46,795 nt of DNA from a virus. Lineage: Duplodnaviria; Heunggongvirae; Uroviricota; Caudoviricetes. The notes beneath the pieces were generated by a model. It had not been told where the DNA came from, made no database searches, and was given only the letters and a program-made list of their open reading frames with translations. Positions 1 through 46,795 of this stretch are shown here, piece by piece; position 1 is the stretch's first letter, and each line of letters begins with the position of its first letter. A program made the translations under genes and the position numbers. The stretch is from the IMG/VR virus record IMGVR_UViG_2740892118_000012, positions 1 through 46,795 of that record; one strand, written 5' to 3'.

Positions 1-3000
1 ATGAAAAAAAATTCTTTAAATGTGATTTTGGATACTGTTTTCTCGGCGAAAAGCATCAATGGTGAGAAATCTCATTCTTTTATATCGTATAAATTAGTTA
101 AAGCTGTAGAAAATTTAAGTGGATATGACTTGGATCTTTTCCTCAATCGTGCGATAAACCATCCTAACTTCCCTAGCAATATGGATTTTTCCTTACGAAC
201 AGTTTTTACAATTGAACAATCTAACACTATTGAATTTAAAAATTTCATTTCAGAATTGGTGTGGTACAAGCATATTTTCATACGATATAAAAAACACCTT
301 AATGATATATTATCGGCAAAGGCAAGACTTGAGAAGTTAGTTCTTTTCGCAACAGGTAGTGAATGTATAAAATATTTAGATGAAATAGAAAGCTCTTATG
401 GAGTTAGTTTTTGGAGCATTGATGCTCGTCTCTTAATAAATAAAGTTTTGCTTAACGAAAGCAATGGGTTATATGTTAAATCAATTCTATCTAAAACCCA
501 CTATAAACTTACAGAGTTTATGTTACAGCAGCTATTATTTAAGCATCAAGTACATAACTTTGATGATTTTTCAAAGAACCTTATAAAAATACTAGATGAT
601 ATGCGCACCACTCAAGATAATGGGTATGCTAGAAATTTAGCTGATGGTATTTCATCCTTTTTAATACCTTTAGAGTTTGATAAAAATATAGATCTCAAAA
701 ATAGAACCTTAGCACCATTTACCAACCTTCCTTTAATAGATCAATTTATCATATTCCAGAGAACTATAAGCGATTTACAACTTCATGGAAATGGTTTAAG
801 AAATAGCGAGTTAAGCTTAATTGCAGAAATTAACAGCTTTATTAAAAATAACTATCTCAACAATATTTTAGATGGAAGAGAGCGTAATATAGAGAATATT
901 GATGAACACTATAAAAGTGTTATTCGACGTTATACTATAGGTGATTATACTGGGTGTATTTCAGAAATAAATTCAGTTCGAACGCAGAAGACAATTTTGC
1001 CATTAATTGAAATATATGCAAAATCCCATGTGTATCTTGATAAGAAAATTTCAGACTCATGCATATTCAATAAATTAACAAACTGGCTTATAGCAATTAT
1101 AAAATGCGACAGACGCGCTGGAAAATACATCGATGAATTTGAACTTTTAGCATCTAAGATATATTTCAATTCAAATTCATCCTCTCTATTCTTCACATTA
1201 TATAATTTAATAAGTGATAACCATAATAAATTAAACATATCTCGTATAAATCTAACCAAAAATGGTTCCTTTGTAACATCCCTTCATTTGAATATAACAA
1301 TCAAGGAACTATGGACTGAACTTGGAATAAAAGAGAATGAGATACCAAAATATCGATTATTTAAATTCAAAGACCTAGCAAATCTATCCTTTGATGAAAT
1401 CAAAAAACACTACGAAGTATACAATGATAATGTAATAATTCGCTCTGAATATTTAAAAGATTATACTAACTTTTTATTAGAAAATGAAAAGTATGAATTA
1501 TGCATCCAATTTATAGCTGAAAACTGCATCGGCAACCCCGCAAATTATTACTACTTCCCAATCCGAAAAATAATTGATTTTGTAAAAGACAATATTTTTG
1601 ACTATGCAAGCGTGGCCTTATCTATATTGATAGATATTTTTGTCAAAAGCACATCAAACACTTCAAATGAGCTTCTTCTCGAAAGTTATGAGAGTTTAGT
1701 AGATATTTCAAATATTAATAGGCCATCTACCCATTATTGCTCTAAGCAATTAACTCCATTAGAGCACTATTTCCTTAAGTTTATCTGTATACCTTCCGTG
1801 ATGGATTCAGACCCTTCATTCACAGGCACGGACGACTTGAAGAAGGAAAGAATTGCTATTATAGATCTATTATTAAAAGAACACGATGATGCAGATTTAT
1901 TGAAAGAGAAAGACGAAATTATAGATGAAATATCATTCGAAGAAATAAAAACAAAATATGAGACAGGAAAAATATTTGTTGATATAGAAAATTTAAAACG
2001 GGCAAAGCTTGAAAGATACAGATATTATTTTGATGCACTTAAGGATTCGCTTATTCTCGGACTAGAACCACCTGAAGACTTTGCTTTAATTACAGACGAT
2101 GGGAATATCACAGCCATTCCATCTGGCGATACAAACTCTATAATCCATGAACTTCTAAAAGAACTAATCTCCGATTTTGTTAAAAATGAAAATTACGGTC
2201 TTGATAAATATTTGAGTGCAGATATACGGCATGGTGTTTTTGAAAATCAACTCAGATCAAGTGCTGAAAAATCGCAATTAATAACTGATATGGATGGTAC
2301 TGGACAGTATTCGAAAAGCAATTTAATTATTGAGACATATCCATTAATTAACCCTATTATAAATAACGAAATAGGGACAGCAATAGCTGATTTCTCTTAT
2401 CACTTTGACATTGAATTGGCTAAAGCCAATTCCTGGTTCAATGTCAAGACAATGCTCATAAGTGAATCACAGCAAGGTATGATTGATTTCCTCATTTCTG
2501 TTGATATGTTTAATTCATTTAAAGCAGCAGTTTCAAATCAAGCATCTTTTGAGAAGTTTTTTGACGCTTGTATTAACTTCATGTGGGAAAGAACGTTCAG
2601 ATGTTTGAATGATATTAAAGAGCGATTGCATTACGAATTTAAGAGGAATATTTTAGATTTAATTGCCACTCTTAGGCATCAAATTGATATCTATAGAAGA
2701 CGTAGTTCCATGAGAGAAATCCAGGAGAAAATTGACCTCTTGGCCGAAAGCATTAATAAAGAAATTGCAACAGTCTGCGATTGGTTAAATGTACTTGAGT
2801 ATAACGAGGAGAAAATATATAAAATATCATCCGTGATGCAGGCATGTAGGAAAACTTTTTTTAATATACACCATTGTTCTGATGATGCTATCGTTTTTGA
2901 TTCAATGTATCATGATGATGAACCAAAATTATCTTATAAAGAAGCCAAGCCTCTAATCACATCAATAATAACAGCGTTAAACAATGCTATGGCCTATGGT

Positions 3001-3276
3001 AATAAAAAAATCTTTATCAGTATTAAGCCTGAAGAAAAGTCATGGAAAATAACCATCAGAAATTTGATAATTGAGACAAAGAACAGAACTACCAACCAAA
3101 TTTTACAAGAGATTGATGATAAAATAAAACGAGGGGATAATAGTCTAAATATAAAAGAAGGCGGAGCTGGAATATATAAAATATATGATTTATTATGTTC
3201 ATTACCGCAAAGATTTAATGTGAATCATTGCATCCAAAATAACGAATTCATTTTAAATATTGAGATAAAGAAATGA
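1..3276 (+). CDS. Large sensor-like protein with C-terminal histidine-kinase-type (GHKL) ATPase region; first gene of a Detocs-like three-gene phosphorelay cassette (DtcA-like). ATG at window position 1, so the N-terminus may be truncated by the window edge
   Basis: ORF 1..3276 (1091 aa). C-terminal ~200 aa carry an N-box-like 'ITALNNAMAYGN', a glycine loop 'EGGAGIYKIY' and a candidate H-box 'ATLRHQID'. No Walker A P-loop seen. Stop overlaps next start (ATGA at 3273-3276). Strongly AT-rich. Confidence 0.6.
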   Translation: MKKNSLNVILDTVFSAKSINGEKSHSFISYKLVKAVENLSGYDLDLFLNRAINHPNFPSNMDFSLRTVFTIEQSNTIEFKNFISELVWYKHIFIRYKKHLNDILSAKARLEKLVLFATGSECIKYLDEIESSYGVSFWSIDARLLINKVLLNESNGLYVKSILSKTHYKLTEFMLQQLLFKHQVHNFDDFSKNLIKILDDMRTTQDNGYARNLADGISSFLIPLEFDKNIDLKNRTLAPFTNLPLIDQFIIFQRTISDLQLHGNGLRNSELSLIAEINSFIKNNYLNNILDGRERNIENIDEHYKSVIRRYTIGDYTGCISEINSVRTQKTILPLIEIYAKSHVYLDKKISDSCIFNKLTNWLIAIIKCDRRAGKYIDEFELLASKIYFNSNSSSLFFTLYNLISDNHNKLNISRINLTKNGSFVTSLHLNITIKELWTELGIKENEIPKYRLFKFKDLANLSFDEIKKHYEVYNDNVIIRSEYLKDYTNFLLENEKYELCIQFIAENCIGNPANYYYFPIRKIIDFVKDNIFDYASVALSILIDIFVKSTSNTSNELLLESYESLVDISNINRPSTHYCSKQLTPLEHYFLKFICIPSVMDSDPSFTGTDDLKKERIAIIDLLLKEHDDADLLKEKDEIIDEISFEEIKTKYETGKIFVDIENLKRAKLERYRYYFDALKDSLILGLEPPEDFALITDDGNITAIPSGDTNSIIHELLKELISDFVKNENYGLDKYLSADIRHGVFENQLRSSAEKSQLITDMDGTGQYSKSNLIIETYPLINPIINNEIGTAIADFSYHFDIELAKANSWFNVKTMLISESQQGMIDFLISVDMFNSFKAAVSNQASFEKFFDACINFMWERTFRCLNDIKERLHYEFKRNILDLIATLRHQIDIYRRRSSMREIQEKIDLLAESINKEIATVCDWLNVLEYNEEKIYKISSVMQACRKTFFNIHHCSDDAIVFDSMYHDDEPKLSYKEAKPLITSIITALNNAMAYGNKKIFISIKPEEKSWKITIRNLIIETKNRTTNQILQEIDDKIKRGDNSLNIKEGGAGIYKIYDLLCSLPQRFNVNHCIQNNEFILNIEIKK

Positions 3277-3722
3277 AAATTCTTCTTGTTGAGGATATTG
3301 AATATAAGCGTGATAAGGTGATCGGTTTACTAGAGTCTATTTCTGCCGATGTATCAGTCGATGTAGCTAAATCTTATGTTTCGGCAGTAAATTCCGCAAC
3401 CAGTAAAACTTATGATCTTATAATATTAGATATGAGCCTTCCCACTTACGATAAGGGGCCTAATGAAAATGGAGGTCGCTTCAGAGTGTACGGAGGGAAA
3501 GATATTATTCGCAAGTTAATGAGAGGAAAAGAGCATCCAGTAGTTGTGGTTTTAACACAACATACAACTTTTGGTGAAATTGGTGAGCAAAAAAATACTG
3601 ACACTCTATCACAAGAGTTGAATGCTTTAATGGGATCAAAATTTATAGGTATTGTAAAATATGACTCAACTAAACCTCAATGGAAAGATGAAATAAAAAA
3701 AGTCGTACAGGATTTGTTATGA
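3273..3722 (+). CDS. Stand-alone response-regulator receiver (REC) domain protein (DtcB-like)
   Basis: 149 aa. REC signature: N-terminal 'ILLVEDIE' acidic pocket, 'DLIILDMSLP' with phospho-acceptor Asp, 'VVVLTQ' Thr, downstream Lys. ATGA overlap with both flanking genes. Confidence 0.7.
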   Translation: MKILLVEDIEYKRDKVIGLLESISADVSVDVAKSYVSAVNSATSKTYDLIILDMSLPTYDKGPNENGGRFRVYGGKDIIRKLMRGKEHPVVVVLTQHTTFGEIGEQKNTDTLSQELNALMGSKFIGIVKYDSTKPQWKDEIKKVVQDLL

Positions 3723-4882
3723 TTAAAATATTAATAGTTGATGACAATAAATCTAGAATTGAAAAGCTAAAATCTAGCTTAACTGAACTCATCACAAAAA
3801 ACATGATAAGGATTGATGAGAAATATACAAGTGACGCCGCAAAAATCGCGCTCAAGTTAAATCAATATGATTATTTAATTCTTGATGTCTTTTTACCTAA
3901 AAAAGATAACTATAGCCCAGATGAAAGAAATGGATTAGGTCTTTTAAAACAAATAAATTCAGATTCTAAATTTTACTCTCCAAAAAAAATAGTTGGCATA
4001 ACTGCATATCTGAATGATATATCCAGATATGAATCCGAATTCAGAGAATATGCTTCAATTATATTCGAGGCTCGACGTAATGATACTGGATGGCTTGAAT
4101 CACTCAAAAAAATCATTGAAAAGGATGTTGAATCTCAAGTAAGTTATAATCTCAATGAAAAAGATAGTGTTTTAATAACAGTACACGGTATAAGAACCTA
4201 CGCACCTTGGCAAAATACCATAGAAGAAAAAATAACCAATATATCAAATAAATTTAACTATATAAAATTCAATTATGGTTTTCTAAATATTCTTTGTTTT
4301 TTATTCCCTCCGACTAGACATCTATTTGCAAGAAAAATAATCCAAGACATACGAATTACAGTGGAATCAAATAAGAATAAAAGAATTTATATTATTTGTC
4401 ATAGTTTTGGTACCTACCTTGTATATTGTGCCTTAAGTAAACTGACACATACGGATGCAAAAATTGAATGTTTAATTTTTTCTGGTAGCGTATTAAAACG
4501 TACTACCTCATTGAAAACATTAAAGCAACATTGTAATGCAATAATAAATGACTGTGCTGTAAGTGATTATATTTTATTACTATGTAAAATGTTAGTCATT
4601 GGCTTGGGCGATGCAGGCAGAAAAGGGTTTATTGAGCCAAATGATGGTGTTTTCATTAACCGCTATTTTAAAGGAGGACATTCAACTTACTTCGAAGATA
4701 AAGATTTCATAGAAGTGAACTGGCTTCCTTTAATTTTTGACAATAAAAATATCGCGTCACGAGATGAAAGAAAAAATCATATTTTTTCCGATGTCACCAA
4801 TGCTTTGCAAAATATAATTGAATATTTAAAAATACCAATATGGTTATTTTTTTCTTTTTTATTGATAGCACTGGTATTATAA
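3719..4882 (+). CDS. Receiver (REC) domain fused to alpha/beta-hydrolase-like (serine esterase/lipase-type) domain with C-terminal hydrophobic anchor; putative effector (DtcC-like with non-PNP effector)
   Basis: 387 aa. N-terminal REC ('ILIVDDNK', 'DYLILDVFLP', 'IVGITAY'). C-terminal part has 'LITVHGIRT' (oxyanion-hole HG), 'IICHSFGT' (nucleophile elbow x-H-S-x-G), 'DAG' and 'GGHST' (candidate acid/His), ending in hydrophobic 'IPIWLFFSFLLIALVL'. Confidence 0.65.
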   Translation: MIKILIVDDNKSRIEKLKSSLTELITKNMIRIDEKYTSDAAKIALKLNQYDYLILDVFLPKKDNYSPDERNGLGLLKQINSDSKFYSPKKIVGITAYLNDISRYESEFREYASIIFEARRNDTGWLESLKKIIEKDVESQVSYNLNEKDSVLITVHGIRTYAPWQNTIEEKITNISNKFNYIKFNYGFLNILCFLFPPTRHLFARKIIQDIRITVESNKNKRIYIICHSFGTYLVYCALSKLTHTDAKIECLIFSGSVLKRTTSLKTLKQHCNAIINDCAVSDYILLLCKMLVIGLGDAGRKGFIEPNDGVFINRYFKGGHSTYFEDKDFIEVNWLPLIFDNKNIASRDERKNHIFSDVTNALQNIIEYLKIPIWLFFSFLLIALVL

Positions 4883-5361: not shown

Positions 5362-6327
5362 TTAGAATGGTTTGTTAATATTAATAGATTTACCATTGAT
5401 ATCTTTTGACACCTTAAAAAAATCTATACCTTTTATCCACTGACATAACTGTTGTAGTGTTTCCATTGCCTGTTCTAACTCATTTTTTTCAATTCTAACG
5501 CCCCCATGATGGCTACAGGAATTTAATAATTCCTGAGCTAGAGTGATGTCATTCTTCAGCTTATTAGGCAGACCGAGAAAATTAATCACCCTCGACAAAC
5601 TCCCAAGCATTAACTTTTGATAGTCTTCTTCAAATTCCTTTTCAGCCCTAATATTTACTAACATCAAAACATACTCAAGATAACGCCGTGCTGTATTTCC
5701 CTTTTCTTGTAACGCATCTCTATCATACTCTTTAATATCACTCAATTCCTGTAGTAGAAAATCAAACTTAGCTATTGCCAAGTTAAGATTGATGTTATGC
5801 ATTAGCAATTCGGATGCATGATTGCTAACAGGTACACGATTTGGTGGACGTATCATTATAGCCGTCGTGTAACAATTTATATTTGGTATCTGTATAAATT
5901 CCTCACCGGAACGCGTAACACGTTGAACTTCTACCATATAGTGGCCAAATTTATCAATCTCATATGACCGACAACGAGCAGAATATAATTTATTTAGCTT
6001 TTTCCTGTCTTGATAATATGATTTTATTAATACAAAAAATGCTCTTTCGTGCTCAATAATTAAAATAGTCTCTATTGAAGCATGGTACAACCATCCGTTA
6101 TTCCATGTTAATTCAAGCTGTCTATTTCCATCTTTAAAATCAATTTTAGTTATACGATCCCAACTTCCTCTATCAATAAAATCGACAATATTGCGCCCAA
6201 ATCCTTGATAGTTATTTTTAACAATGTGCAATAGTACTGCCTTTATTTTATCCCAATCATGAATTTCTTTTTCATATTCACCATTTAATATATTCGTTAA
6301 ATCACTGTGAAAATTTTCATATGTCAT
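5362..6327 (-). CDS. Hypothetical protein (321 aa), AT-rich island cargo adjacent to integrase; no recognised domain
   Basis: ORF with ATG start at 6327; AT-rich codon usage like the cassette; convergent with the cassette and co-directional with the integrase. Confidence 0.55.
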   Translation of the reverse strand: MTYENFHSDLTNILNGEYEKEIHDWDKIKAVLLHIVKNNYQGFGRNIVDFIDRGSWDRITKIDFKDGNRQLELTWNNGWLYHASIETILIIEHERAFFVLIKSYYQDRKKLNKLYSARCRSYEIDKFGHYMVEVQRVTRSGEEFIQIPNINCYTTAIMIRPPNRVPVSNHASELLMHNINLNLAIAKFDFLLQELSDIKEYDRDALQEKGNTARRYLEYVLMLVNIRAEKEFEEDYQKLMLGSLSRVINFLGLPNKLKNDITLAQELLNSCSHHGGVRIEKNELEQAMETLQQLCQWIKGIDFFKVSKDINGKSININKPF

Positions 6328-6428: not shown

Positions 6429-7613
6429 TCAATTGACATCATTACCAATTCTTCCAATGCAATCAGCATACCACTGCATCATCTCCCTCCGCCCTTCCAG
6501 ATACAAAGCATGGTTGTACGTCCCACGAATCGCATTCTTATCGACATGCGCAAGCTGGGTTTCAATCCATGCCGTATTGAACCCTTCCTCGTGCAAAATC
6601 GTACTCATCGTGTGACGGAAACCATGCCCCGTTACCTTCCCCGTATACCCAATCCGTTTGAATACCTGATTCATACTCGCTTCACTCATCGTCTTGCGGG
6701 GATCATTTCGCCCTGGGAATACCAGTGGATATTGCCCAGATATCACCTTGAGTTGTTGTACGATTTCCAGCGCTTGGGTAGATAGGGGGACAAGGTGAGG
6801 CCGTTTCATCTTCATACGCTCTGCAGGTATTTCCCACACTGCTTTTTCAAGATCAAACTCACTCCAGAAAGCACCTCGTAGCTCGCCAGTACGAACTCCT
6901 GTAAGGATCAGCAGACGAGCGGCAAGAACAACTAACGGGCTTCCTGTGTAGCCTGCGAGAGCTTTAAAGAAGTCTGGTAACTCCTCAACAGTAAGGAAGG
7001 GATAATGCTTCGATTCATGCCCTGACATTGCGCTGGTTAGATCCGCTGCAGGATTGTATTCCGCACGACCGGTAACGATGGCGTAACGAAAGACTTCACT
7101 GCAACGCTGGCGAACCTTCTTGGCCTTCTCTGTCGCGCCACGGCTTTCCATTCGACGTAGCACATTCAGCAGAACCAAAGGCTTGATGTCATTCACCGGC
7201 AGTTGGCCAATATAAGGGAAAATATCTTTATTGAAGGCTTCGATAATGTCGGAGGCATAACCTTCTGACCACCGGCTCACCTTCGTTCCGTGCCATTCAA
7301 GTGCCACAGCCTGAAACGTATTATTGAGCTGCACATCGCGAACCAACTTTTCTTCTTTCTTGGCAAACGATGGGTCGATACCTTCGGCCAGCTTTTTCTT
7401 GGCTTCATCACGCAGTGCCCTCGCTTGTGCAAGGGACACTGCCGGATAGACACCAAAAGCCATACGTTTCTCTTTTCCATTGAAGCGATATTTCATCCGC
7501 CAGTATCGAGAACCAGAAGGAACAACTTCAAGATACAAGCCTGCACCATCTGCTAGCTTGTAGGCTTTCTCTCTGGGTTTAGCAGCATCTACCTGTCGAG
7601 CATTAAGCTTCAT
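6429..7613 (-). CDS. int: P4-type tyrosine integrase (site-specific recombinase)
   Basis: N-terminal 'GLYLEVVPSGSRYWRMKYRFNGKEKRMAFGVYPAVSLAQAR' (P4-int N-terminal domain); C-terminal catalytic 'HGFRHT' and 'RGTYNHALY'. ORF track starts at a GTG at 7652; ATG at 7613 has RBS AGGGAG ~9 nt upstream (ATG at 7622 also possible). Confidence 0.9.
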   Translation of the reverse strand: MKLNARQVDAAKPREKAYKLADGAGLYLEVVPSGSRYWRMKYRFNGKEKRMAFGVYPAVSLAQARALRDEAKKKLAEGIDPSFAKKEEKLVRDVQLNNTFQAVALEWHGTKVSRWSEGYASDIIEAFNKDIFPYIGQLPVNDIKPLVLLNVLRRMESRGATEKAKKVRQRCSEVFRYAIVTGRAEYNPAADLTSAMSGHESKHYPFLTVEELPDFFKALAGYTGSPLVVLAARLLILTGVRTGELRGAFWSEFDLEKAVWEIPAERMKMKRPHLVPLSTQALEIVQQLKVISGQYPLVFPGRNDPRKTMSEASMNQVFKRIGYTGKVTGHGFRHTMSTILHEEGFNTAWIETQLAHVDKNAIRGTYNHALYLEGRREMMQWYADCIGRIGNDVN

Positions 7614-7776
7614 TGGGGGCATCTCCCTGGACCGAACACAGAATGCCCCCACTTATGCCCCCAACTGCGACTTGATTTCGGTTGAGTCCAGTTGATAACA
7701 GGAGATAAGATACGGGCCAGAAACCGCAGTATACGGGCTTTTAGTTGATTTCGGTAGACTTGGGAAGAGTTTGAAA

Positions 7777-8053: not shown

Positions 8054-8353
8054 CTACGATGCAAGAATCCATACCAATAAGCATCCGATAATTGGGAAAG
8101 AAAAATCCAACAGACTTCCCACATCCCACACGCGTGGATCAAAACCTCCCCACCACGGCATGTTGATGCGTTTCCCTTTCCCAAACTTTTCTATCCAGCG
8201 ATATTCTGCCTGGGTGTGTTCACGCGCAATGAAGAACGTACAACCGGCTATCGCACCGTAAGCCCAGTTTCCGGTAGAAAGGCCAACCAGTACCTGAGCC
8301 GCAAAAGCGCAAAGCGAGTGAAGAAATGGAGTGACATCAATGCTCTTAATCAT
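8054..8353 (-). CDS. Small hypothetical membrane protein (about 3 hydrophobic segments) immediately downstream of tailspike
   Basis: 99-aa ORF, start overlapping tailspike stop; hydrophobic stretches '[12 protein letters not shown]', '[13 protein letters not shown]', '[14 protein letters not shown]'. Confidence 0.35.
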
Positions 8354-10407
8354 GAAACTTCCCCATTGGTTGAAAATATGGCTCCTCCAACGCCAAGTGT
8401 ATTTCGTGTTGCGCTCAACCTCAGAGGGCTGGAGTCAGAATTAGAATATCCTGTAGCAGAAATAAAAGATCCTCCACTAATAGTCAACTGCGGAACATCG
8501 GCTATATCTGAATAAGTTCTGTCAGCAACAGTATTATTTATAGCCACATGTGATCCAAAAAAACTTCTTATTGTTTGGTTTTTAACTTTACTTCCTTCAA
8601 TGGTTATCCTACTACCACAGTCGGCAATAAATCCTGAATCTGCATCCAGCGTTGCATTCATAAAAGAAGCTTCAGATCTCTCTACATCAATCCATCTAAT
8701 ATCTTTTGTGGGATTTGCACCAAATACATGACAAATATTAGAGTTAAACCTTACACCATCTTGGAGGTGCATTAATTTTTTTATATCTGTACCCCATAGC
8801 CTTGGAAAATTAACAGATGCTCCTGCATGGCAATCAAATCCCAGCTCAACCCCTGAGATATCTACAGCCTTTCCGGAAATAACAGCACCAGTGTCTGCAT
8901 TAACGGCTGTTCCACAATTGCGCATATCATTACCAGCAACATCAACACAACCCGCACCATCAATACGCACACCAAGTGCACATCCATAAAAACCTTTTTC
9001 AATATTTGGTTCAAGGACTTTACCACTTGTTTCTGCATCACTTTCTTCAACGTCATGTCGTCTTGCATCAACATATGCTGTATGAATGCACGTTAATCCA
9101 CGATATGAGCAATGTATAGTTTTATGGTCGCGTATATTAACATTTGAACCATCTCTTACATTCCATCCTATATAACAATAGCTTGCACTTGACCCCTGAA
9201 AATCTGCTTTAACATTATAAATACAATTAACTGACGCAACCGTACTCTCTGTGCACCGTTCAAACTTACTTACAGGCATTGATGCCTTGACATTATTTAC
9301 CAGTTGCAGGGAAGAGTATCTGCTATAAGAAAAATCACATACGTAATACCCTTCTGGCATATATGCAGCAACACTTTCCTCATCAGGAGCACATCCGGTA
9401 TGATATGCACTAATTTTTGCACCAAAACTACCATGAATTCCAACGTAGAACTTTCGAGCACCTGAATACGGATAGAAATTAAGTTCAGCTTTTTGAGTTA
9501 CAATAAATGCACAAACATCGCTATCATCTCTATTTTCTTCAATCTGAATAGCAAATACAGGACTTTTTGCTGCATCGCAAATGTAAAATAAATATTTGTA
9601 TTCGTAATACGTCCTAACAGTTTTAGTAAACAAACTGGTATCAGAGAAAACCACTGAGTCTTCTGATATTATTTTAATCCATGATAAGTCACATCCTGCT
9701 GAAATTTCTATTTGCTCATTGAGCACAAAACCGGAAAGAATTTTAATTATGCAAAAATCAATGCCATTTTTCCATAGTGGACGCAGTGCAACAGCTGAGT
9801 TCAGAGCATCACTAATAGATTTAAAATTACCATATTCCCCAACTGTTATTGTGAATGCATACCTGGAATTAAATACTGCGGCACTCTCTCCAGAGTTAAT
9901 AGCTGCAGATATCATGTCATAATTTGATATAAAATCATTTGGCGTGATTATTTCTGCGTTTTTATTGTGCTGTGTTCTAAGTTTTGAATTTACATGAACA
10001 CTTTTAACTGCAATACGGGAGTCGTCAACAAGTATTTCATTACCCTCTGTTGCTAACTCTTGTCTTAACTGATCCGGATCATACTTCAGCACATTCGGAA
10101 AATAGAACTGCTGCACACCGTACGCATCATAAACAGCCATCGAATGGCCTTGCACGGTAACGAATTTGGCAATCTGTCCGTTATATACCGGATATCCAGC
10201 AGCGTTAATGATGATTGGCTGTGCAACAGGAACGTGAGAACCATCTTCGTTCTCAACATAGACCTGAATCTGGTTTTCTGGATTTACCGGGTCAGTGTCA
10301 ATTTTACCGATATAAATTTTGCCATTGGCTACGGCTTTAAAAGAACGAGCCATAGTGAAGAGTTGCGAAGGCATGCTCACTACAACATTGGCTGTAATGT
10401 CTGTCAT
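8350..10407 (-). CDS. Tailspike protein (P22 gene 9-type N-terminal head-binding domain, divergent receptor-binding domain)
   Basis: N-terminal ~110 aa '[13 protein letters not shown]...[21 protein letters not shown]...NVLKYDPDQ' closely matches recalled P22 tailspike N-terminus; the remaining ~570 aa do not. Confidence 0.85.
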
Positions 10408-10477
10408 TTAATTTGCTCCAGATACAAGGAATCGCCGCAGCATTGCCGCAGTGATGCATTATTAATCAAAAAAATAC

Positions 10478-10490
10478 GACCACCGTGGTC
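10478..10490. promoter_or_regulatory. Perfect palindrome GACCACCGTGGTC; candidate Mnt-type operator between mnt and tailspike
   Basis: Seen in sequence in the 148-bp mnt-tailspike intergenic region; resembles the recalled P22 Omnt GTGG/CCAC-core palindrome. Confidence 0.4.
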
Positions 10491-10554
10491 TTATTGAGGA
10501 TGCAATCAGCAGATAATAAGATGCCGATCCACTCACAAAAGCGAGGCATCAAGA

Positions 10555-10806
10555 ATGGGAAGAGATGACCCGCAATTTAATCTGCGGCTACCTTACGAAT
10601 TAAAGGAAAAACTAAAACAGCGAGCCAAATCCAATGGCCGCTCTCTTAATTCAGAATTAGTTCAGATAGTGACTGATGCTGTATCAAAGCCATCCAAAAT
10701 TTCAGGCTATCGAGACGATGCGGAACGCATCGCTGATGAGCAGTCAGAGCTTGTTAAGAAGATGGTGTTTGATACGCTGAATGATTTGTACAAAAAACCC
10801 ACCTGA
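10555..10806 (+). CDS. mnt: Mnt repressor (ribbon-helix-helix, Arc/MetJ family)
   Basis: 83 aa 'MGRDDPQFNLRLPYELKEKLKQRAKSNGRSLNSELVQIV...DDAERIADEQSELVKKMVFDTLNDLYKK' matches recalled P22 Mnt along its length. Confidence 0.85.
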   Translation: MGRDDPQFNLRLPYELKEKLKQRAKSNGRSLNSELVQIVTDAVSKPSKISGYRDDAERIADEQSELVKKMVFDTLNDLYKKPT

Positions 10807-10905
10807 AGGTGGGTTAATTTTTGCATTTACCTGGGCCATATTGACTACTTATAAAATGAGATCAATATTTAATCGCCCAATAACGGGTGTATGTTGAGGT
10901 ATATC

Positions 10906-11085
10906 ATGGCGAAAAAACCAGGTGAAAACACAGGAAAAAACGGCGGAATATACCAAGAAGTTGGCCCACGCGGCGGTAAGAAAGACAATTTTGCAACCGT
11001 CAAGGACAACGAAAGGCTTCCACCAACAACAAAGCCAGGTCATGGCTGGGTATTGGATAAGCGAACTCCAGACAGCAAAAAGTAA
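10906..11085 (+). CDS. Small hypothetical protein (59 aa), Gly/Lys-rich
   Basis: ATG at 10906 preceded by GAGGT with 5-nt spacing; followed by a terminator hairpin. Confidence 0.4.
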   Translation: MAKKPGENTGKNGGIYQEVGPRGGKKDNFATVKDNERLPPTTKPGHGWVLDKRTPDSKK

Positions 11086-11091
11086 TAATCA

Positions 11092-11113
11092 AGCCGGGTC
11101 ACTCCGGCTTTTT
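11092..11113 (+). terminator. Rho-independent terminator (AGCCGGgtcacTCCGGCT + TTTTT)
   Basis: GC-rich stem-loop followed by T-run, directly after the small ORF stop. Confidence 0.5.
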
Positions 11114-11464
11114 GATATGTCGCTCGCAGAACTCAACAAGCCTGCTCATTAAGTAGCAGTAAGTCTCGTTGGCTCTTCCTGGTTCAACATCAACACCTAC
11201 CCTTGAGCAGATATCGAATGCCATGTGAGCGCACTCATGGGCAATAGTAGATAGTTTGCCATTGAACACGCCTATCACATGCAAAACACCATTCTCGCTA
11301 CTCATTGTATGAGACGCTCCGTTGGCGTCCGAGTCATGCACGTCAACGCCAAGTTTTTGATGCAGGCGTTGCCATTCTGGAAAGTCTCTACAAAACACAA
11401 TTGTACCGCTCTCAAAGAGCGGAACGAGCATCTTTGGTACGTTTCCAATGTTAACTTTTTTCAT
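11099..11464 (-). CDS. Small hypothetical protein with HExxH motif ('IAHECAHMAF'); possible zinc-metallopeptidase-like moron
   Basis: 121-aa ORF; HExxH seen directly; no further homology recognised. Confidence 0.45.
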   Translation of the reverse strand: MKKVNIGNVPKMLVPLFESGTIVFCRDFPEWQRLHQKLGVDVHDSDANGASHTMSSENGVLHVIGVFNGKLSTIAHECAHMAFDICSRVGVDVEPGRANETYCYLMSRLVEFCERHIKKPE

Positions 11465-11498
11465 GGTATCCTGCGCAAAACTAAGGAGAGTTAATTAT

Positions 11499-11984
11499 AT
11501 GAAAAAATCACTGTTAATTATCCCGCTTCTGCTGGCTGGGTGCGCAAAAGTAAGCGACTATCAGGCAAGTTGCGAGCAACGCTATCCAAAGCTTAGCGAT
11601 ATGGCTAATTGCCTTGATGCCAGCTTGAAGAACGACTCTCGCATGGCATCAGCACCAACACCTAAGCTGTATGTCCTTGCTGCGAAGATGCTCGGGCAAG
11701 GTGTCGATGAAGGCAAGATAAGTGACACACAGGCAAGACTTGAACTTCAGAATCTTTATGTTCAATTACAAAGCCAAGAACAAGCACAACAAATAGCACA
11801 AAGCCAAGCATTCCAGCAGGCTTTATTGAATTATCAGGCTGTAAACACAATGCAAGCGATCGAGCAAAAAGCGCGCCAGCCTGTTATAACTCAACCTTAC
11901 CCAACACGCGTTGACACATATACAAACTGCAATTCAGGATTTGGAAACACGGTAACATGCAACAGTAGCAGTAATATCAGATAG
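11499..11984 (+). CDS. Lipoprotein (signal peptide with lipobox LLAGC), Gln-rich; prophage moron in the sieA/immI-equivalent position
   Basis: ATG at 11499 with RBS AAGGAGAG; N-terminus 'MKKSLLIIPLLLAGCAK'; ORF track begins upstream at 11448. Confidence 0.6.
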   Translation: MKKSLLIIPLLLAGCAKVSDYQASCEQRYPKLSDMANCLDASLKNDSRMASAPTPKLYVLAAKMLGQGVDEGKISDTQARLELQNLYVQLQSQEQAQQIAQSQAFQQALLNYQAVNTMQAIEQKARQPVITQPYPTRVDTYTNCNSGFGNTVTCNSSSNIR

Positions 11985-11997
11985 TTATATCTTATTT

Positions 11998-13845
11998 TTA
12001 TTGCTGTTCTGCTGTAATTTGGCTTGAAAGTATAGGGCGTATCGCATTTGCAGCATTATTTAGCGCTCTTTCATAGGCTGGTGTTCCTGCTTTGGTGTTT
12101 GCCAAACGTAAGAGAGCATTCCTTGCTGCTTTTGACTCATACAAGCGCATCATTGCACCGAAACCAGCCTCAAGCCCCATTGATACGCCAAGAGTCGCAG
12201 TTGCGCCAATCGTCCTTATCCTGTTGGCTTGCGATTGCCCCGTCTGAGTTACTACATTTGCGGTGTCTGACCTTGCTGTTTGCTGTAGAACTTCATGAAG
12301 AGAATCAAGCTCTTTCATGTGCTTTCCAGAAAAAATAGTGTTGTAAATTTCACCGCCTGACTGAGATTTCAGCTTATTAACTTCAGTGATGAACTTGGCT
12401 GGAGAGTCACCGGCCTTTTCCGCTATTTTGCTGACATAAGCTGCACGCATAGCATCTTTCCCTTTATTATCCAATGCGCTCCAGATTCGTTTCACGTCAG
12501 ATGGTTTTCTGCTTAATACAACGGTATTTATAAGTTCAGGACTGGCTTCACTGCTTGCCTTGTTGAGCTTGTTAGCAATGTTTTTATTAAGCACCTTATT
12601 ATAAACGTTTGCATAATCGGAATTTGCTTTAAGGTATTTTGCTGCGTCTGATGCACCGAGGTTTTTTGCAACTGCGTTACGAAGATCTTTTGACATTGCA
12701 TTCTCTACCATATTGGTAGCTGCTTTTGCCTGGTTTGGGAAGACCATAGCATCTCCCTGAACATTAGATCTAAATGCTGTTCTGTGCTGACGCAAGAGAT
12801 CAAACGTAACATCCAAATCAGTTGCAGGGTTTGCTAATTCTTCACGTAGGTTACGCAAGGATGTAAGCAGGCTTTGATTGGCAGACGTCCCAAGCCGTTC
12901 CTGTCTTGCGATCGCTGTATTCAGAGCATTCATGGTATTTGTGGTATCAACTGCGGCATTACCCATTTTATTGGTGACGTCATTGATAACAGCGCCAGCG
13001 GCATCCTTCCGCCCCCTTAACGTGGTGGTAAGAGATTTCACCACATCATCAGGGTTGTACTCACCAAAACGGTCAAAATAATTACTTACCAGCTTACTAC
13101 GCGTTGCATATTGCTCCGCTCGCTTTGAGCCTGTCCCGAGCAAAGCCCCCTCGGCATCCTGAGTTAGGCCGCGAGTGAAAGCATTTTTCGGCGGGATAAC
13201 ATCAGATGTCATTGGTGTCACGCCCATCGATTCTGATGTGGCAATTTTCTTCGCCACTTCTGGCGCAATATCACCTTTTATAGCCGTTATTCCACGCCCT
13301 ATTCCCTTTGCTGCTGCGGAAAGAACCCCCTGAGCGGCAAGGTTAACTCCGGCATTTTTAGCTGCATTTTGTGCGAAATCGCCTTTCTGATTTGCGGCCT
13401 CTGCCAGTGATCCAATAGCCATGCTTCCTGCCGTTCCAACTCCTGGAACTAAATACCCGCCAATTGTTTCTCCAGCTTGCGCATAAGGGTCTGTTGGTCG
13501 ATCGACTGGACGATAGACATCGTCCAAAACCTTGGGGCCACCAAGCCCCTGGCTGATTGCATTAATCAGACTTGCGCCGCCCTGCAATACGTCAAATGGT
13601 ATGTTTACCAGACCACGACCAGCCTGTTCCGCAATTTGCCCTGCACTTTGACCACCAGTGAGCCAATCGCCAGCTTGTTGCATCAATGATGGTTCTTCCC
13701 GTGTTGGTGCATTATTGGCCTGATTAACTGTTTGTTGCTGAACAGCCTGACCAGCAAAATACTCATCAATGGCGGTGCCAATATCTTCGGTGCTCGTACC
13801 ATCAGGAAAGGTAAATGTCTTACCGTTTGCAGTTACTTTCATCAT
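11998..13845 (-). CDS. Ejection/DNA-injection protein (P22 gp16-like)
   Basis: 615 aa at the position and size of P22 gene 16, last gene of the 4-10-26-14-7-20-16 block; stop/start overlap with gp20. Confidence 0.7.
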
Positions 13846-30116: not shown

Positions 30117-30403
30117 GACTTAATCTTCCCCTCCTTCAGCAGTATCGCCTGCGTCCTGATCACGCCTTCGAGGTGGTAAAGTCTGGCGTCTTTGTTGTCG
30201 AGATTATGGGTGCGTCGGTCGATTTCATCGTGACACGCGCTACAAGCCCATGCGCCGATCAGGTCGTCAGGCTTCATTCCCGTTCCGCAAATTCCAGCCA
30301 TCCGATAATGTGCCAGAACTGTAGTTTCAGGGTTGCCATTGCATACGCCGTAAATACGTACCTGGCATTCTCTGCCGCGTGCTTCTTTGCGTAGATTAGC
30401 CAT
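30113..30403 (-). CDS. ybcO: YbcO-like DUF1364 protein (putative nuclease) of lambdoid nin region
   Basis: 96 aa 'MANLRKEARGRECQVRIYGVCNGNPETTVLAHYRMAGICGTG...ACSACHDEIDRRTH' resembles DLP12 YbcO. Confidence 0.7.
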   Translation of the reverse strand: MANLRKEARGRECQVRIYGVCNGNPETTVLAHYRMAGICGTGMKPDDLIGAWACSACHDEIDRRTHNLDNKDARLYHLEGVIRTQAILLKEGKIKS

Positions 30404-31125
30404 TAAGCAGCCTCACCTGTTACTTTCAGCATTCCGTTATCGAGCAGCTTTCTGGTCAGCCACTGTTGACCACGCCCGGTGATTTTTGTGGTGAACGATA
30501 TCTGTATTCCGTGATTTGTGTTGACCGCTGTTTCTTTCACTGTGAAATAGCCGCGATCCATATATTCCTGCATTGGCACATTGCGCCGGGAACCTGAAGC
30601 AATAAGGATTTTGTGATCGCGCATCCACGCAAACAGTTTGTTTGGACCAATACCGACAACCTTTGCAAAGTTTCCAATCAAAATTCCGCTGGCCTCGCCA
30701 ACGCGATCGGCAAACTCAACTTTAGGTGCGGCAATTGCGAGCTGGTTTTCCAGTTGCATTTTCTGCTCAGCAAGATCAGCAGCAAGGCGCAACGCTTCTG
30801 GTAGCGTTTTGGGGATATTAACCGCAGCTTCTTCAAGCTCTCGCCAGCGGTCAACAAGGCGAGCGGTGAATTCCGGCGACAACTGGGCAACAACGACAAT
30901 ACTGTCTCGCTTACCTTGTTCGCCTTCGAAAACGTAATGCTCGTACTGAACATTGAACCCTAAGTTATTGATTCTTTCGGAAACCTCAATTTGAGGAAGC
31001 CGGATAACACCATTTTTAGCCAGCGTTTCGATGGTACGTTTCACATTGTCATGACGCTTACCAACCAACTCAGCGATTTCAATGCTTGTCATTTTGATGG
31101 CATTGCCATTTATTAACTCATTCAT
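30403..31125 (-). CDS. Rha/antirepressor-like phage regulatory protein (KilA-C/Ant-type)
   Basis: 240 aa; N-terminal 'MTSIEIAELVGKRHDNVKRTIETL' HTH plus C-terminal antirepressor-like region; ATG overlaps upstream stop. Confidence 0.55.
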   Translation of the reverse strand: MNELINGNAIKMTSIEIAELVGKRHDNVKRTIETLAKNGVIRLPQIEVSERINNLGFNVQYEHYVFEGEQGKRDSIVVVAQLSPEFTARLVDRWRELEEAAVNIPKTLPEALRLAADLAEQKMQLENQLAIAAPKVEFADRVGEASGILIGNFAKVVGIGPNKLFAWMRDHKILIASGSRRNVPMQEYMDRGYFTVKETAVNTNHGIQISFTTKITGRGQQWLTRKLLDNGMLKVTGEAA

Positions 31126-45410: not shown

Positions 45411-45758
45411 GTGGAAGAAGAAATCTTCACTCGTGAAGAGGCGGCGTCGTATCTGAAGGTAGACAAAGGCACTATCACGCAGTGGATACGAAGTGGACGA
45501 CTTCAGGCCGCAAAGATAAATCCAGATAAACCTAAAAGCCCATATCGCATTTGCAAGTCAGACTGCATTGCGGCGCTTAAGTCTGTGAGACACAATAGCG
45601 CGGTGAATGCGGTTGATGTGCAGGAGGTTAAAGCATGTCAATCAAACTACGCGGTGGCACGTGGCACTGCGATTTCGTCGCGCCAGATGGATCAAGAGTT
45701 AGACGCTCTCTTGAAACATCGGACAAAAGGCAAGCGCAAGAACTTCACGATCGTCTGA
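45411..45758 (+). CDS. xis: Excisionase (HTH DNA-binding, Xis)
   Basis: 'TREEAASYLKVDKGTITQWIRSGRLQAAK' HTH; immediately upstream of and overlapping int, as in lambda/P22. The 3' end in the overlap is uncertain. Confidence 0.6.
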   Translation: MEEEIFTREEAASYLKVDKGTITQWIRSGRLQAAKINPDKPKSPYRICKSDCIAALKSVRHNSAVNAVDVQEVKACQSNYAVARGTAISSRQMDQELDALLKHRTKGKRKNFTIV

Positions 45759-46795
45759 AAGCAGAAGCGTGGAGAGTAAAAAATCTCGGGGAATCACCGA
45801 AAAAGCTATTCAAGGAAGCCTGCATACGGTGGCTTCGTGAGAAATCGGATAAGAAGTCCATTGATGATGACAAGAGCATTATATCGTTCTGGATGTTGCA
45901 CTTCAGAGAAACCATTCTCTCAGACATAACAACAGAAAAAATAATGGAGGCGGTAGACGGGATGGGAAACCGCCGCCATCGCCTGAACTGGGAAATGAGC
46001 CGGGACAGGTGTTTGCGACTTGGTAAGCCAGTGCCGGAGTATAAACCAAAGCTGGCAAGCAAAGGAACGAAGACGCGGCATCTGGCAATACTTCGCGCTA
46101 TTCTCAATATGGCTGTTGAATGGGGATGGCTTGACAGGGCGCCCAAAATATCAACACCACGCGTTAAGAATGGACGAATCAGATGGCTTACAGAGGAGGA
46201 ATCGAAGCGCCTGTTTGCAGAAATTGCTCCTCATTTCTTCCCTGTGGTCATGTTTGCAATCACGACAGGCCTTCGCCGTTCCAACGTTACAGACCTTGAG
46301 TGGTCACAGGTAGATCTGGATAAGAAAATGGCATGGATGCACCCTGATGAAACAAAAGCTGGCAATGCGATCGGAGTTCCTCTTAACGAAACCGCATGCC
46401 AGATATTAAGAAAACAGCAGGGTCTCCATAAGAGATGGGTGTTTGTCCACACCAAACCTGCCTACCGAAGCGACGGAACAAAAACAGCAGCGGTAAGGAA
46501 GATGAGAACCGACAGCAACAAGGCATGGAAGGGAGCGTTAAAGCGGGCAGGCATTAGCAACTTCCGCTTCCATGACCTGAGGCATACCTGGGCAAGCTGG
46601 CTGGTTCAGTCCGGTGTCTCTCTTCTTGCACTTAAAGAGATGGGAGGATGGGAAACTCTCGAAATGGTTCAAAGATACGCCCACCTTTCAGCCGGGCATC
46701 TCACCGAGCACGCGAGCAAAATCGATGCGATTATAAGTCGCAATGGCACAAATACGGCACAAGAGGAGAACGTAGTTTACTTAAATGTGAGGTAA
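45635..46795 (+). CDS. int: Tyrosine integrase (P22 Int-like, lambda integrase family)
   Basis: 386 aa; '...KRQAQELHDRLKAEAWRV...KSIDDDKSII...RRHRLNW...FRFHDLRHTWASWLVQSGVSLLALKEMGGWETLEMVQRYAHLSAGHLTEHA' matches recalled P22 Int with catalytic R, H-x-x-R and Y; stop at window end. Confidence 0.9.
   Translation: MSIKLRGGTWHCDFVAPDGSRVRRSLETSDKRQAQELHDRLKAEAWRVKNLGESPKKLFKEACIRWLREKSDKKSIDDDKSIISFWMLHFRETILSDITTEKIMEAVDGMGNRRHRLNWEMSRDRCLRLGKPVPEYKPKLASKGTKTRHLAILRAILNMAVEWGWLDRAPKISTPRVKNGRIRWLTEEESKRLFAEIAPHFFPVVMFAITTGLRRSNVTDLEWSQVDLDKKMAWMHPDETKAGNAIGVPLNETACQILRKQQGLHKRWVFVHTKPAYRSDGTKTAAVRKMRTDSNKAWKGALKRAGISNFRFHDLRHTWASWLVQSGVSLLALKEMGGWETLEMVQRYAHLSAGHLTEHASKIDAIISRNGTNTAQEENVVYLNVR

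Follow-up and report, generated by a model that had tools for sequence, protein, structure and literature searches.

Two independent accessory modules, a candidate SieA substitute and a cassette with a predicted zinc peptidase, may meet in the ant moron of a P22-like prophage

Do two divergent genes lying side by side in the accessory region of a prophage form one system? The question is raised by positions 11099-11984 of a 46,795-nucleotide stretch of viral DNA (IMG/VR record IMGVR_UViG_2740892118_000012, positions 1 to 46,795; hereafter the window), where hkcC, a small gene with an HExxH motif, and the gene for a putative lipoprotein are transcribed away from each other. The gene map of the window is that of a P22-like (Lederbergvirus-type) prophage, and the interval falls between gene 16 and the tailspike gene (gene 9), in the region which Villafane et al. 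named the "ant moron" and identified as the most variable part of the late operon. An initial annotation read the two genes as a pair, expressed in the lysogen, which could block superinfecting phage. The best explanation of the interval as a whole, and one for which we judge the chances to be evenly balanced, is instead a junction of two independent accessory modules: a lipoprotein serving as a substitute for SieA, and an hkcC/orf59a cassette contributing a late-made zincin.

The features that drew attention to the interval are sound. Both open reading frames (ORFs), divergent and of 121 and 161 amino acids, are under purifying selection, with ratios of non-synonymous to synonymous substitution (dN/dS) versus close relatives of 0.05-0.09 for hkcC and 0.04-0.13 for the lipoprotein gene. 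Neither motif is a chance string, given that the HExxH and a downstream glutamate, E100, are invariant in 109 HkcC homologues, and lipobox residues G14 and C15 in 24 homologues of the lipoprotein. The genes do lie between the ejection genes and immI, with gene 16 on one side and mnt on the other, and neither shows homology to virion proteins. It is their union that fails. Among 5426 complete Escherichia coli genomes, the lipoprotein gene occurs in 186 (~3%, including the pathogenic strain LF82) and hkcC in 131, and the two are contiguous, at 98-100% identity, in just 18, which argues that they are not a functional pair. The lipoprotein gene is found without an adjoining hkcC in Serratia, Morganella, Proteus, Providencia and Tatumella, in phages Gally and VSe13, and in E. 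coli FORC_028; hkcC, in turn, keeps company with sieA (P22), hkcB (HK620), an empty sieA slot (SE1) or siphovirus tail modules, and its conserved neighbor is orf59a. A single divergent, lysogen-expressed exclusion system made up of both proteins is thus largely refuted by co-occurrence and must be regarded as extremely improbable, even though the divergent start codons are 34 nucleotides apart and the exact arrangement recurs in those 18 genomes. Also in its favor, the 35 nucleotides 5' of the lipoprotein gene, which include the complement of the hkcC start codon, are kept even in phages without hkcC, and this hints at an older shared junction.

Nucleotide identities suggest where the seam lies. 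From 10708 to 11492, through hkcC and the 34-nucleotide intergenic leader, the window is 97% identical to P22; phages Gally and vB_EcoP-720R6 match the lipoprotein half at ~96% identity. The match to P22 breaks off just past the AAGGAG of the sieA Shine-Dalgarno sequence (11483-11488), and the lipoprotein ORF thus appears to replace sieA behind the same leader, with a cassette junction at this point. Judged from these alignments, the interval is in all likelihood a recombination junction that joins a P22-like mnt-orf59a-hkcC block to a Gally-like lipoprotein cassette. The features concerned, by position in the window, are:

8350-10407, - strand: gene 9 homologue, encoding the tailspike, at the second border of the "ant moron"
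10555-10806, + strand: mnt, encoding an Arc/Mnt ribbon-helix-helix repressor
10841-10869, + strand: sigma-70-like promoter TTGACT-17-AATATT, 5' of orf59a
10903-11085 (64-codon reading from 10891), + strand: orf59a (HK620 hkcD), encoding a Gly/Lys/Pro-rich protein of 59/60 amino acids, PHROG 3202
11091-11110, + strand: G+C-rich hairpin with a T-run after it, corresponding to P22 t-mnt and HK620 tORF59A
11099-11464, - strand: hkcC, encoding a cytoplasmic, predicted minimal zincin of 121 amino acids, PHROG 1365
11464-11498, + strand: leader and promoter-proximal segment in common with P22 sieA
11499-11984, + strand: lipoprotein gene, 161 amino acids, PHROG 6067
11998-13845, - strand: gene 16 homologue (ejection protein), the first of a - strand series which continues, from 11998 onward, with the gene 20 and gene 7 homologues

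Across P22-like phages the slot behind this leader holds sieA, hkcB, the present lipoprotein gene, or nothing, which is the behavior of a moron, i.e., presence or absence between conserved flanking genes of related phages. To say that the genes sit where P22 carries sieA is therefore right for the lipoprotein, and wrong for the HExxH ORF, which P22 carries next to sieA. The leader contains an extended -10-like sequence, TGGTATCCT, at 11464-11472, and phages that have the lipoprotein gene but no hkcC retain this leader with its extended -10-like motif, TGnTATCCT. We infer that a sieA-type promoter drives the lipoprotein gene, bearing in mind that PsieA of P22 is itself described as "putative" (PMC10883804).

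Read from the ATG at 11499, after the AAGGAG Shine-Dalgarno sequence, the 161-residue product begins MKKSLLIIPLLLAGC and has a signal peptide (MKK-SLLIIPLL-LAGC) ending in a lipobox, LAGC, that conforms to the bacterial lipoprotein pattern [LVI][ASTVI][GAS]C; Cys15 is encoded at nucleotides 11541-11543. In the alignment of 24 homologues, which are 51-87% identical to the window protein, L12 is at least 90% conserved, and C25, C38 and C154 are invariant. The partner of C154 in a C-terminal Cys-x9-Cys pair, C144, has a counterpart in every homologue, in an alignment column that differs between two C-terminal variants. The lipobox and the cysteines persist down to 49% identity, and conservation of Cys25, 38, 144 and 154 would fit an exported protein with two disulfides. 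The signal peptide (residues 4-18) is the sole hydrophobic segment; thereafter, a helical bundle, a long Gln-rich helix, a Pro-rich linker and a Cys-x9-Cys hairpin are predicted by the structure model. The Gln-rich region named in the initial annotation amounts to 14 Gln in 40 residues (84-123; nucleotides 11748-11867). Residue +2 is Ala, or Val in the Morganella and Providencia variants, and in the 24 homologues it is never Asp. Under the +2 sorting rule of E. coli, a residue other than Asp at this position directs lipoproteins to the outer membrane, and the window protein is accordingly predicted to be lipidated at Cys15 and anchored in the outer membrane.

The family is as restricted in position as it is in hosts. 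It is confined to Enterobacterales (Escherichia, Salmonella, Citrobacter, Klebsiella, Serratia, Yersinia, Pectobacterium, Morganella, Providencia, Proteus, Xenorhabdus, Tatumella and Cronobacter); no distant relatives beyond this order came up in a profile search, and a species-level genome scan yielded four loci only. At 11 of 11 loci, from nine genera, the gene lies between the tailspike head-binding (N-terminal) domain and gene 16, convergent with gene 16 wherever the latter is annotated, and the adjoining gp16, where alignable, is 33-100% identical to that of the window. The gene stands in tandem after mnt in Proteus phage Brookers as well as in many prophages of E. coli. The protein has no match in Pfam at E <= 1 and none in NCBIfam or PADLOC, its sole PHROG match is PHROG 6067 (unknown function), and the family profile returned noise only from PDB sequences. 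Membership of the Cor, Llp or Bor families, which had been raised at the outset, thus finds no backing in Pfam, PHROGs, NCBIfam or PADLOC. Homology to SieA, to HkcB of HK620 and to a 139-residue lipoprotein of Gally was considered and rejected, as the signal peptides alone align.

Expression in the lysogen, as initially proposed for the lipoprotein, is borne out for an orthologue in E. coli LF82, the host of phage Gally, rather than for the window strain itself: GALLYPH_13 (LF82_138), whose protein is 97.5% identical to the window lipoprotein, is transcribed from the repressed Gally prophage (values from S1 Table of Misson et al. 2023; PMC9928086). In stationary phase in lysogeny broth (LB), it attained 70 normalized reads against a prophage median of 15.6 and 13.7 for gene 16, that is, 4.5-fold over the median and exceeded only by the c2 repressor gene (PMC9928086). 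On the log2 scale its transcript stood at about 6.1 in LB, about 8 in culture medium, and 10.3 after 1 h in macrophages, when gene 16 stood at 3.96 (~80-fold lower); gene 16 remained steady at ~log2 4 across conditions, and the log2 fold change of GALLYPH_13 at 6 h in macrophages versus LB was 2.55 (q = 4.7e-27; PMC9928086). Comparison with gene 16 indicates that transcription of the orthologue in the repressed prophage does not depend on the late operon, a second attribute of morons that can be ascribed here to the orthologue only.

The rise of the LF82 transcript in macrophages lends itself to another interpretation, namely that the lipoprotein is a lysogenic-conversion factor which, like lambda Bor, supports host fitness, be it envelope robustness or survival in serum or macrophages, and does not act in exclusion. 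Its predicted location, which it shares with Bor, and the carriage of the gene by E. coli including the pathogenic LF82, would fit such a role. General fitness morons, however, usually spread across phage types, whereas this family is confined to one slot in one phage type, beside the ejection genes; behind the same leader, it stands in for a gene of proven exclusion function, and has no Bor or TraT similarity in Pfam or PHROGs. Further, deletion of the neighboring mnt was without effect on the survival of LF82 in macrophages (PMC9928086). We therefore consider a host-fitness role rather unlikely, and an exclusion role for the lipoprotein plausible.

The second module is best approached through HkcC itself. 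The window ORF is 99% identical by tblastn to hkcC of HK620 and to an intact ORF of P22, although the P22 RefSeq and P22-pbi records leave this 121-codon ORF unannotated (NC_002371.2, 13861-14226; L001, 2892-3257); in P22 it overlaps the annotated PsieA (within its first 30 nucleotides, on the opposite strand) and t-mnt. HECAH occupies residues 76-80 (nucleotides 11225-11239), and the putative third zinc ligand, E100 (11165-11167), follows H80 by 20 residues at the start of a helix spanning 100-116. A profile search of 1.84 billion cluster representatives (E <= 0.001) placed 514 representatives in the family, nearly all of 100-140 amino acids; of the 145 best, 141 have HExxH, and the four exceptions look truncated or frameshifted. 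In the alignment of 109 members, which are 22-78% identical to the window protein, G49, H76, E77, H80 and E100 are the only invariant columns. Both marks of a zincin are thus present, a conserved HExxH and a Glu on the following helix ~18-25 residues downstream, and the invariance of H76, E77, H80 and E100 fits a minimal gluzincin-like zinc peptidase. The AlphaFold2 model has a high predicted local distance difference test score (pLDDT 89) and a predicted template modeling score (pTM) of 0.83, and shows, besides the HExxH helix (71-88) and the helix that starts at E100, a four-stranded sheet with a backing helix.

Comparison with characterized zincins points in the same direction at scores that are all, for fold and for sequence, below significance. 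PDB sequences matched by the 109-sequence profile are without exception zinc proteases, each sub-threshold, with thermolysin aligning over the HExxH and Glu166 at E = 1.2; a smaller profile of 19 hkcC sequences matched nothing in the PDB. A Foldseek search of viral models (BFVD) returned many small proteins of N4-like, Ralstonia, Erwinia jumbo, crAss-like and other phages; annotations as SprT-like or metalloprotease occur in a few. The Pfam SprT-like family (PF10263) is matched weakly by 28 of the 109 members (best E = 1e-4) and not by the window protein; these scores lie below the curated threshold and the family has no third invariant His, so HkcC does not belong to SprT-like, a remote relationship within the zincin clan being possible. 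No Pfam, NCBIfam or PADLOC family accommodates HkcC, which has neither a signal peptide nor a hydrophobic segment. Weak lantibiotic matches (E 0.03-0.14) were rejected as they merely reflect the HECAH stretch, and the literature on the protein accession, and on SprT-like phage anti-defense proteins, was uninformative. On the strength of the conserved residues and the structure model, we predict that HkcC is a cytoplasmic, minimal gluzincin-like zinc peptidase, with probable catalytic activity.

A more specific assignment, also raised at the outset, would make HkcC an anti-repressor protease of ImmA/IrrE type which cuts Mnt, Arc or C2 as part of the immI circuit. Enzymes of IrrE type have, as HkcC does, an HExxH with a downstream Glu; hkcC is a gene of the immI region, with mnt two genes away, and BFVD neighbors include IrrE-annotated proteins, at very weak scores (E 0.03-0.05, template modeling scores 0.3-0.4). 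Yet Peptidase_M78 is matched neither by the window protein nor, among the families listed at E <= 1, by any of the 109 members. No helix-turn-helix repressor adjoins hkcC, whose neighbors are orf59a together with the lipoprotein gene, sieA or tail genes. The same cassette is present in siphovirus tail operons, related genes follow the lysis genes in phage L and mEp044, far from repressors, and HK620 retains hkcC though its mnt and ant are only remnants. In light of these points, an anti-repressor function is highly improbable.

The setting of hkcC suggests when its product might be made. The gene is co-oriented with genes 16 and 9, and a late transcript must cross the region to reach gene 9, carrying hkcC in sense. 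The orf129 gene of phage L and ST64T (38% identity) is flanked by Rz/Rz1 and dec and has the late orientation; the mEp044 homologue follows the lysis genes, again in late orientation; and Klebsiella, Rosenbergiella and metagenomic siphovirus-type prophages carry homologues (57-63% identity) in the gap from the tail-chaperone gene to the tape-measure gene, without exception on the late strand. As hkcC is on the late-operon strand in every context seen, it should be made late in lytic growth. No promoter-like site was found for hkcC.

In contrast to the loose association with the lipoprotein gene, linkage between hkcC and orf59a is tight. A gene for a 59-residue protein lies directly downstream of hkcC, on the opposite strand and 13-30 nucleotides away, at all P22-like loci, at the siphovirus loci and next to a 43%-identical metagenomic homologue; in the loci checked by tblastn this neighbor is orf59a at 72-100% identity, and in the remainder it was identified solely from its size, position and orientation. 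Of about 131 complete E. coli genomes with hkcC, 113 covered at least 80% of a query made up of orf59a and hkcC. At six loci, among them siphovirus-type prophages with otherwise unrelated flanks, neither hexamer of the orf59a promoter varies. The hairpin at 11091-11110 lies between the convergent genes, overlaps the stop codon of hkcC and marks the end of orf59a; it is annotated as t-mnt in P22 and as the bidirectional terminator tORF59A in HK620. The initial annotation had terminator-like hairpins on both flanks of its pair; this one is present, with its T-run on the + strand, so that it would serve mnt and orf59a as t-mnt rather than hkcC, and none follows the lipoprotein gene. Together, the linkage, conserved promoter and shared hairpin define a conserved unit (P-orf59a > orf59a > hairpin < hkcC), and its recurrence marks it, as far as the compared sequences allow, as a mobile cassette in the late operons of different phage types. 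Of the two genes, orf59a is the one of classical moron type, with a conserved sigma-70-like promoter of its own and a terminator hairpin. Its protein gave a sub-threshold YjzC-like match, and has no solved relative.

Between the orf59a promoter and its Shine-Dalgarno sequence, an inverted repeat, CGCCC-AATAA-CGGGTG (10870-10890, + strand), may form a hairpin in the 5' untranslated region or serve as an operator; siphovirus-type loci have different, still pairable sequences at the same place (GCC...GGC, GCTCA...TGAGC). On the metagenomic contig that encodes the 43%-identical homologue (L027, 1330-1968), the convergent 59-residue gene is followed by a PhageMetallopep (PF18894) gene, which places two predicted metallopeptidases side by side.

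Combining both modules, the two-module reading would run as follows. The lipoprotein gene, as an alternative occupant of the sieA slot, would be transcribed away from hkcC from a sieA-type promoter and leader in the repressed prophage; its product would leave the cytoplasm, receive a lipid at Cys15 and go to the outer membrane, with two disulfides to stabilize it in the periplasm. As a non-homologous substitute for SieA, it might then impede delivery of DNA by P22-like superinfecting phages from the outer-membrane or periplasmic side. The conduit formed by gp7, gp20 and gp16, which crosses the periplasm, is the genetic target of SieA (PMC10883804). HkcC would be a protease made late, acting perhaps on Orf59a, or on a host or competitor protein.

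Several observations weigh against this two-module reading. The timing proposed for hkcC is read from orientation alone, and in Gally an unrelated 139-residue lipoprotein gene, GALLYPH_14 (2923-3342, late strand), which takes the hkcC/orf59a position with the orientation of hkcC, is strongly expressed in the lysogen, ranking among the most transcribed LF82 prophage genes at log2 9.8-11.0 in culture medium and macrophages (PMC9928086); orientation is therefore no proof of late-only expression here. One hkcC homologue (L031) is without the 59-residue neighbor. The structure model of the lipoprotein is of moderate quality (pLDDT 66), with no informative structural neighbor. The LF82 authors scored Gally as lacking morons, as GALLYPH_13 falls just under the 5-fold cut-off (78) in LB, and the whole stretch lying between gene 16 and gene 9 is up-regulated in LF82 in macrophages, which could signify host adaptation instead of exclusion (PMC9928086). 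With regard to transcript level, Leavitt et al. remark that sieA is likewise not highly transcribed in lysogens (PMC10883804). Finally, neither a consensus promoter for the lipoprotein gene nor a terminator-like site 3' of it on the + strand was found, and a terminator there was considered and rejected.

A transcript without a terminator at this position could itself be the agent. In that case, the sieA slot would specify an RNA that extends past the lipoprotein gene, whose stop codon is 13 nucleotides from that of the convergent gene 16, to run antisense to the 3' end of the latter and silence homologous incoming phages. There is a precedent in BTP1, where STnc6030, antisense to injection and tailspike genes and abundant in lysogens, gives BTP1 immunity (PMC7067206). 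Set against this are the strong protein-level constraint on the lipoprotein gene, evident from its dN/dS and from the retention of lipobox and cysteines in distant homologues, and the finding that it adjoins gp16 genes only 33% identical to one another, which implies that the coding part has no fixed antisense target. An RNA agent in place of the protein is consequently very unlikely, and an antisense side-effect of the lipoprotein transcript may occur.

A bolder reading takes both modules further, and we regard it as improbable. Here, hkcC and orf59a would constitute a mobile two-gene switch that reads out whether the phage is in lysogeny or lysis: Orf59a, expressed from its own promoter in the lysogen, may be an effector, e.g., directed at incoming phages or at a host process, and HkcC, made late, may remove Orf59a or its target, while convergent transcription silences orf59a, affording self-immunity. 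Independently, the lipoprotein would represent a new periplasmic or outer-membrane block of the P22-type ejection conduit, distinct from the inner-membrane SieA.

Other parts of the window provide context. At the locus, arc, ant and sar are missing, the gap between mnt and the tailspike gene being only 148 nucleotides (10407-10555), and Mnt is thus left without an antirepressor gene to repress there; a gene resembling Rha/ANT-type antirepressors lies elsewhere in the prophage (30403-31125). An Rfam scan of 10300-12100 matched no family. At the left end (1-4882, + strand), three co-oriented genes encoding 1091, 149 and 387 amino acids match the PADLOC candidate defense system PDC-M60 A/B/C (E = 4.5e-55, 2e-35 and 1e-22), and the middle one has a response-regulator receiver domain. 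Beside them lies a P4-type integrase gene (Arm-DNA-bind_3/Phage_int_M/Phage_integrase; 6429-7652, - strand), and between the two a 321-residue ORF (5362-6327, - strand) with no Pfam match at E <= 1e-5 and no PADLOC match. The PDC-M60-like genes and the integrase have the look of an integrative island of their own, next to the prophage at its tailspike end. A second tyrosine integrase at the right end (45635-46795) is presumably that of the prophage itself, and ARAGORN found no tRNA gene in the whole window.

The region is a known hypervariable moron, in which hkcC and 59a had been catalogued with unknown function (PMC2629481); both genes of the interval were already on record in this way, and the locus does not constitute a new kind of system. 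What the present analysis adds is a zinc-peptidase assignment for hkcC, the mobility of the hkcC/orf59a cassette between phage types, and a lipoprotein family of the sieA slot with expression evidence, turning three "hypotheticals" into testable proposals. HkcC would exemplify a widespread phage family of predicted minimal zinc peptidases, with 514 cluster representatives, of which even the reference phage P22 carries a member that its RefSeq record still omits; the convergent cassette appears to move between podovirus and siphovirus late operons. If the lipoprotein proves to be an outer-membrane alternative to SieA, then the ejection-protein conduit would be shown to be attackable in the periplasm. 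The analysis also corrects a natural misreading, in which adjacent divergent genes in a moron region are taken for a system.

With respect to known systems, the lipoprotein invites comparison with P22 SieA above all. The two are alike in their slot between genes 16 and 9, convergent with gene 16, in the upstream leader and Shine-Dalgarno sequence, in size (161 versus 164 amino acids), and in low-to-moderate expression from the prophage (for the lipoprotein, that of its LF82 orthologue; for SieA, PMC10883804). They differ in that no BLASTP alignment is obtained at E <= 100, and SieA spans the inner membrane several times and has an FxRYPxEAxxFNK motif on the cytoplasmic side, whereas the lipoprotein lacks this motif and has only a cleavable signal peptide and a soluble, helical domain in its model. 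BTP1 STnc6030 resembles the lipoprotein gene in slot, in orientation antisense to the late operon and in lysogen expression, the immunity being that of STnc6030; it has no ORF longer than 60 amino acids, unlike the conserved 161-codon ORF under purifying selection described here. P22-like phages use O-antigen and not FhuA, so a receptor block of Cor or Llp type is not directly transferable. As small phage- or prophage-encoded lipoproteins exposed outside the cytoplasm, T5 Llp, phi80/N15 Cor, lambda Bor and Ltp of Streptococcus phage TP-J34 are nevertheless akin to the window protein, which differs from them in having no match to their families and in its helical bundle, long Gln-rich helix and Cys hairpin. 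Ltp, as cited in PMC10883804, offers the precedent of a lipoprotein that blocks DNA injection by binding an ejection or tape-measure protein.

For HkcC, the relation to the hkcC product of HK620 and to the P22 ORF is one of membership, not mere resemblance, with no feature to distinguish the window copy, and orf129 of ST64T and phage L, at 38% identity, belongs to the same family (PHROG 1365), which has been without an assigned function (PMC2629481). SprT, Spartan and Wss1 use a third His, unlike the HkcC family, which has no third invariant His; at only about 120 amino acids, HkcC also departs from zincins in lacking a zinc ribbon or DNA-binding domain. It shares with zincins the predicted beta-sheet, active-site helix and Glu-bearing helix, and with gluzincins of thermolysin type the HExxH and a Glu 20 residues on, which is the spacing of H146 and E166 in thermolysin.

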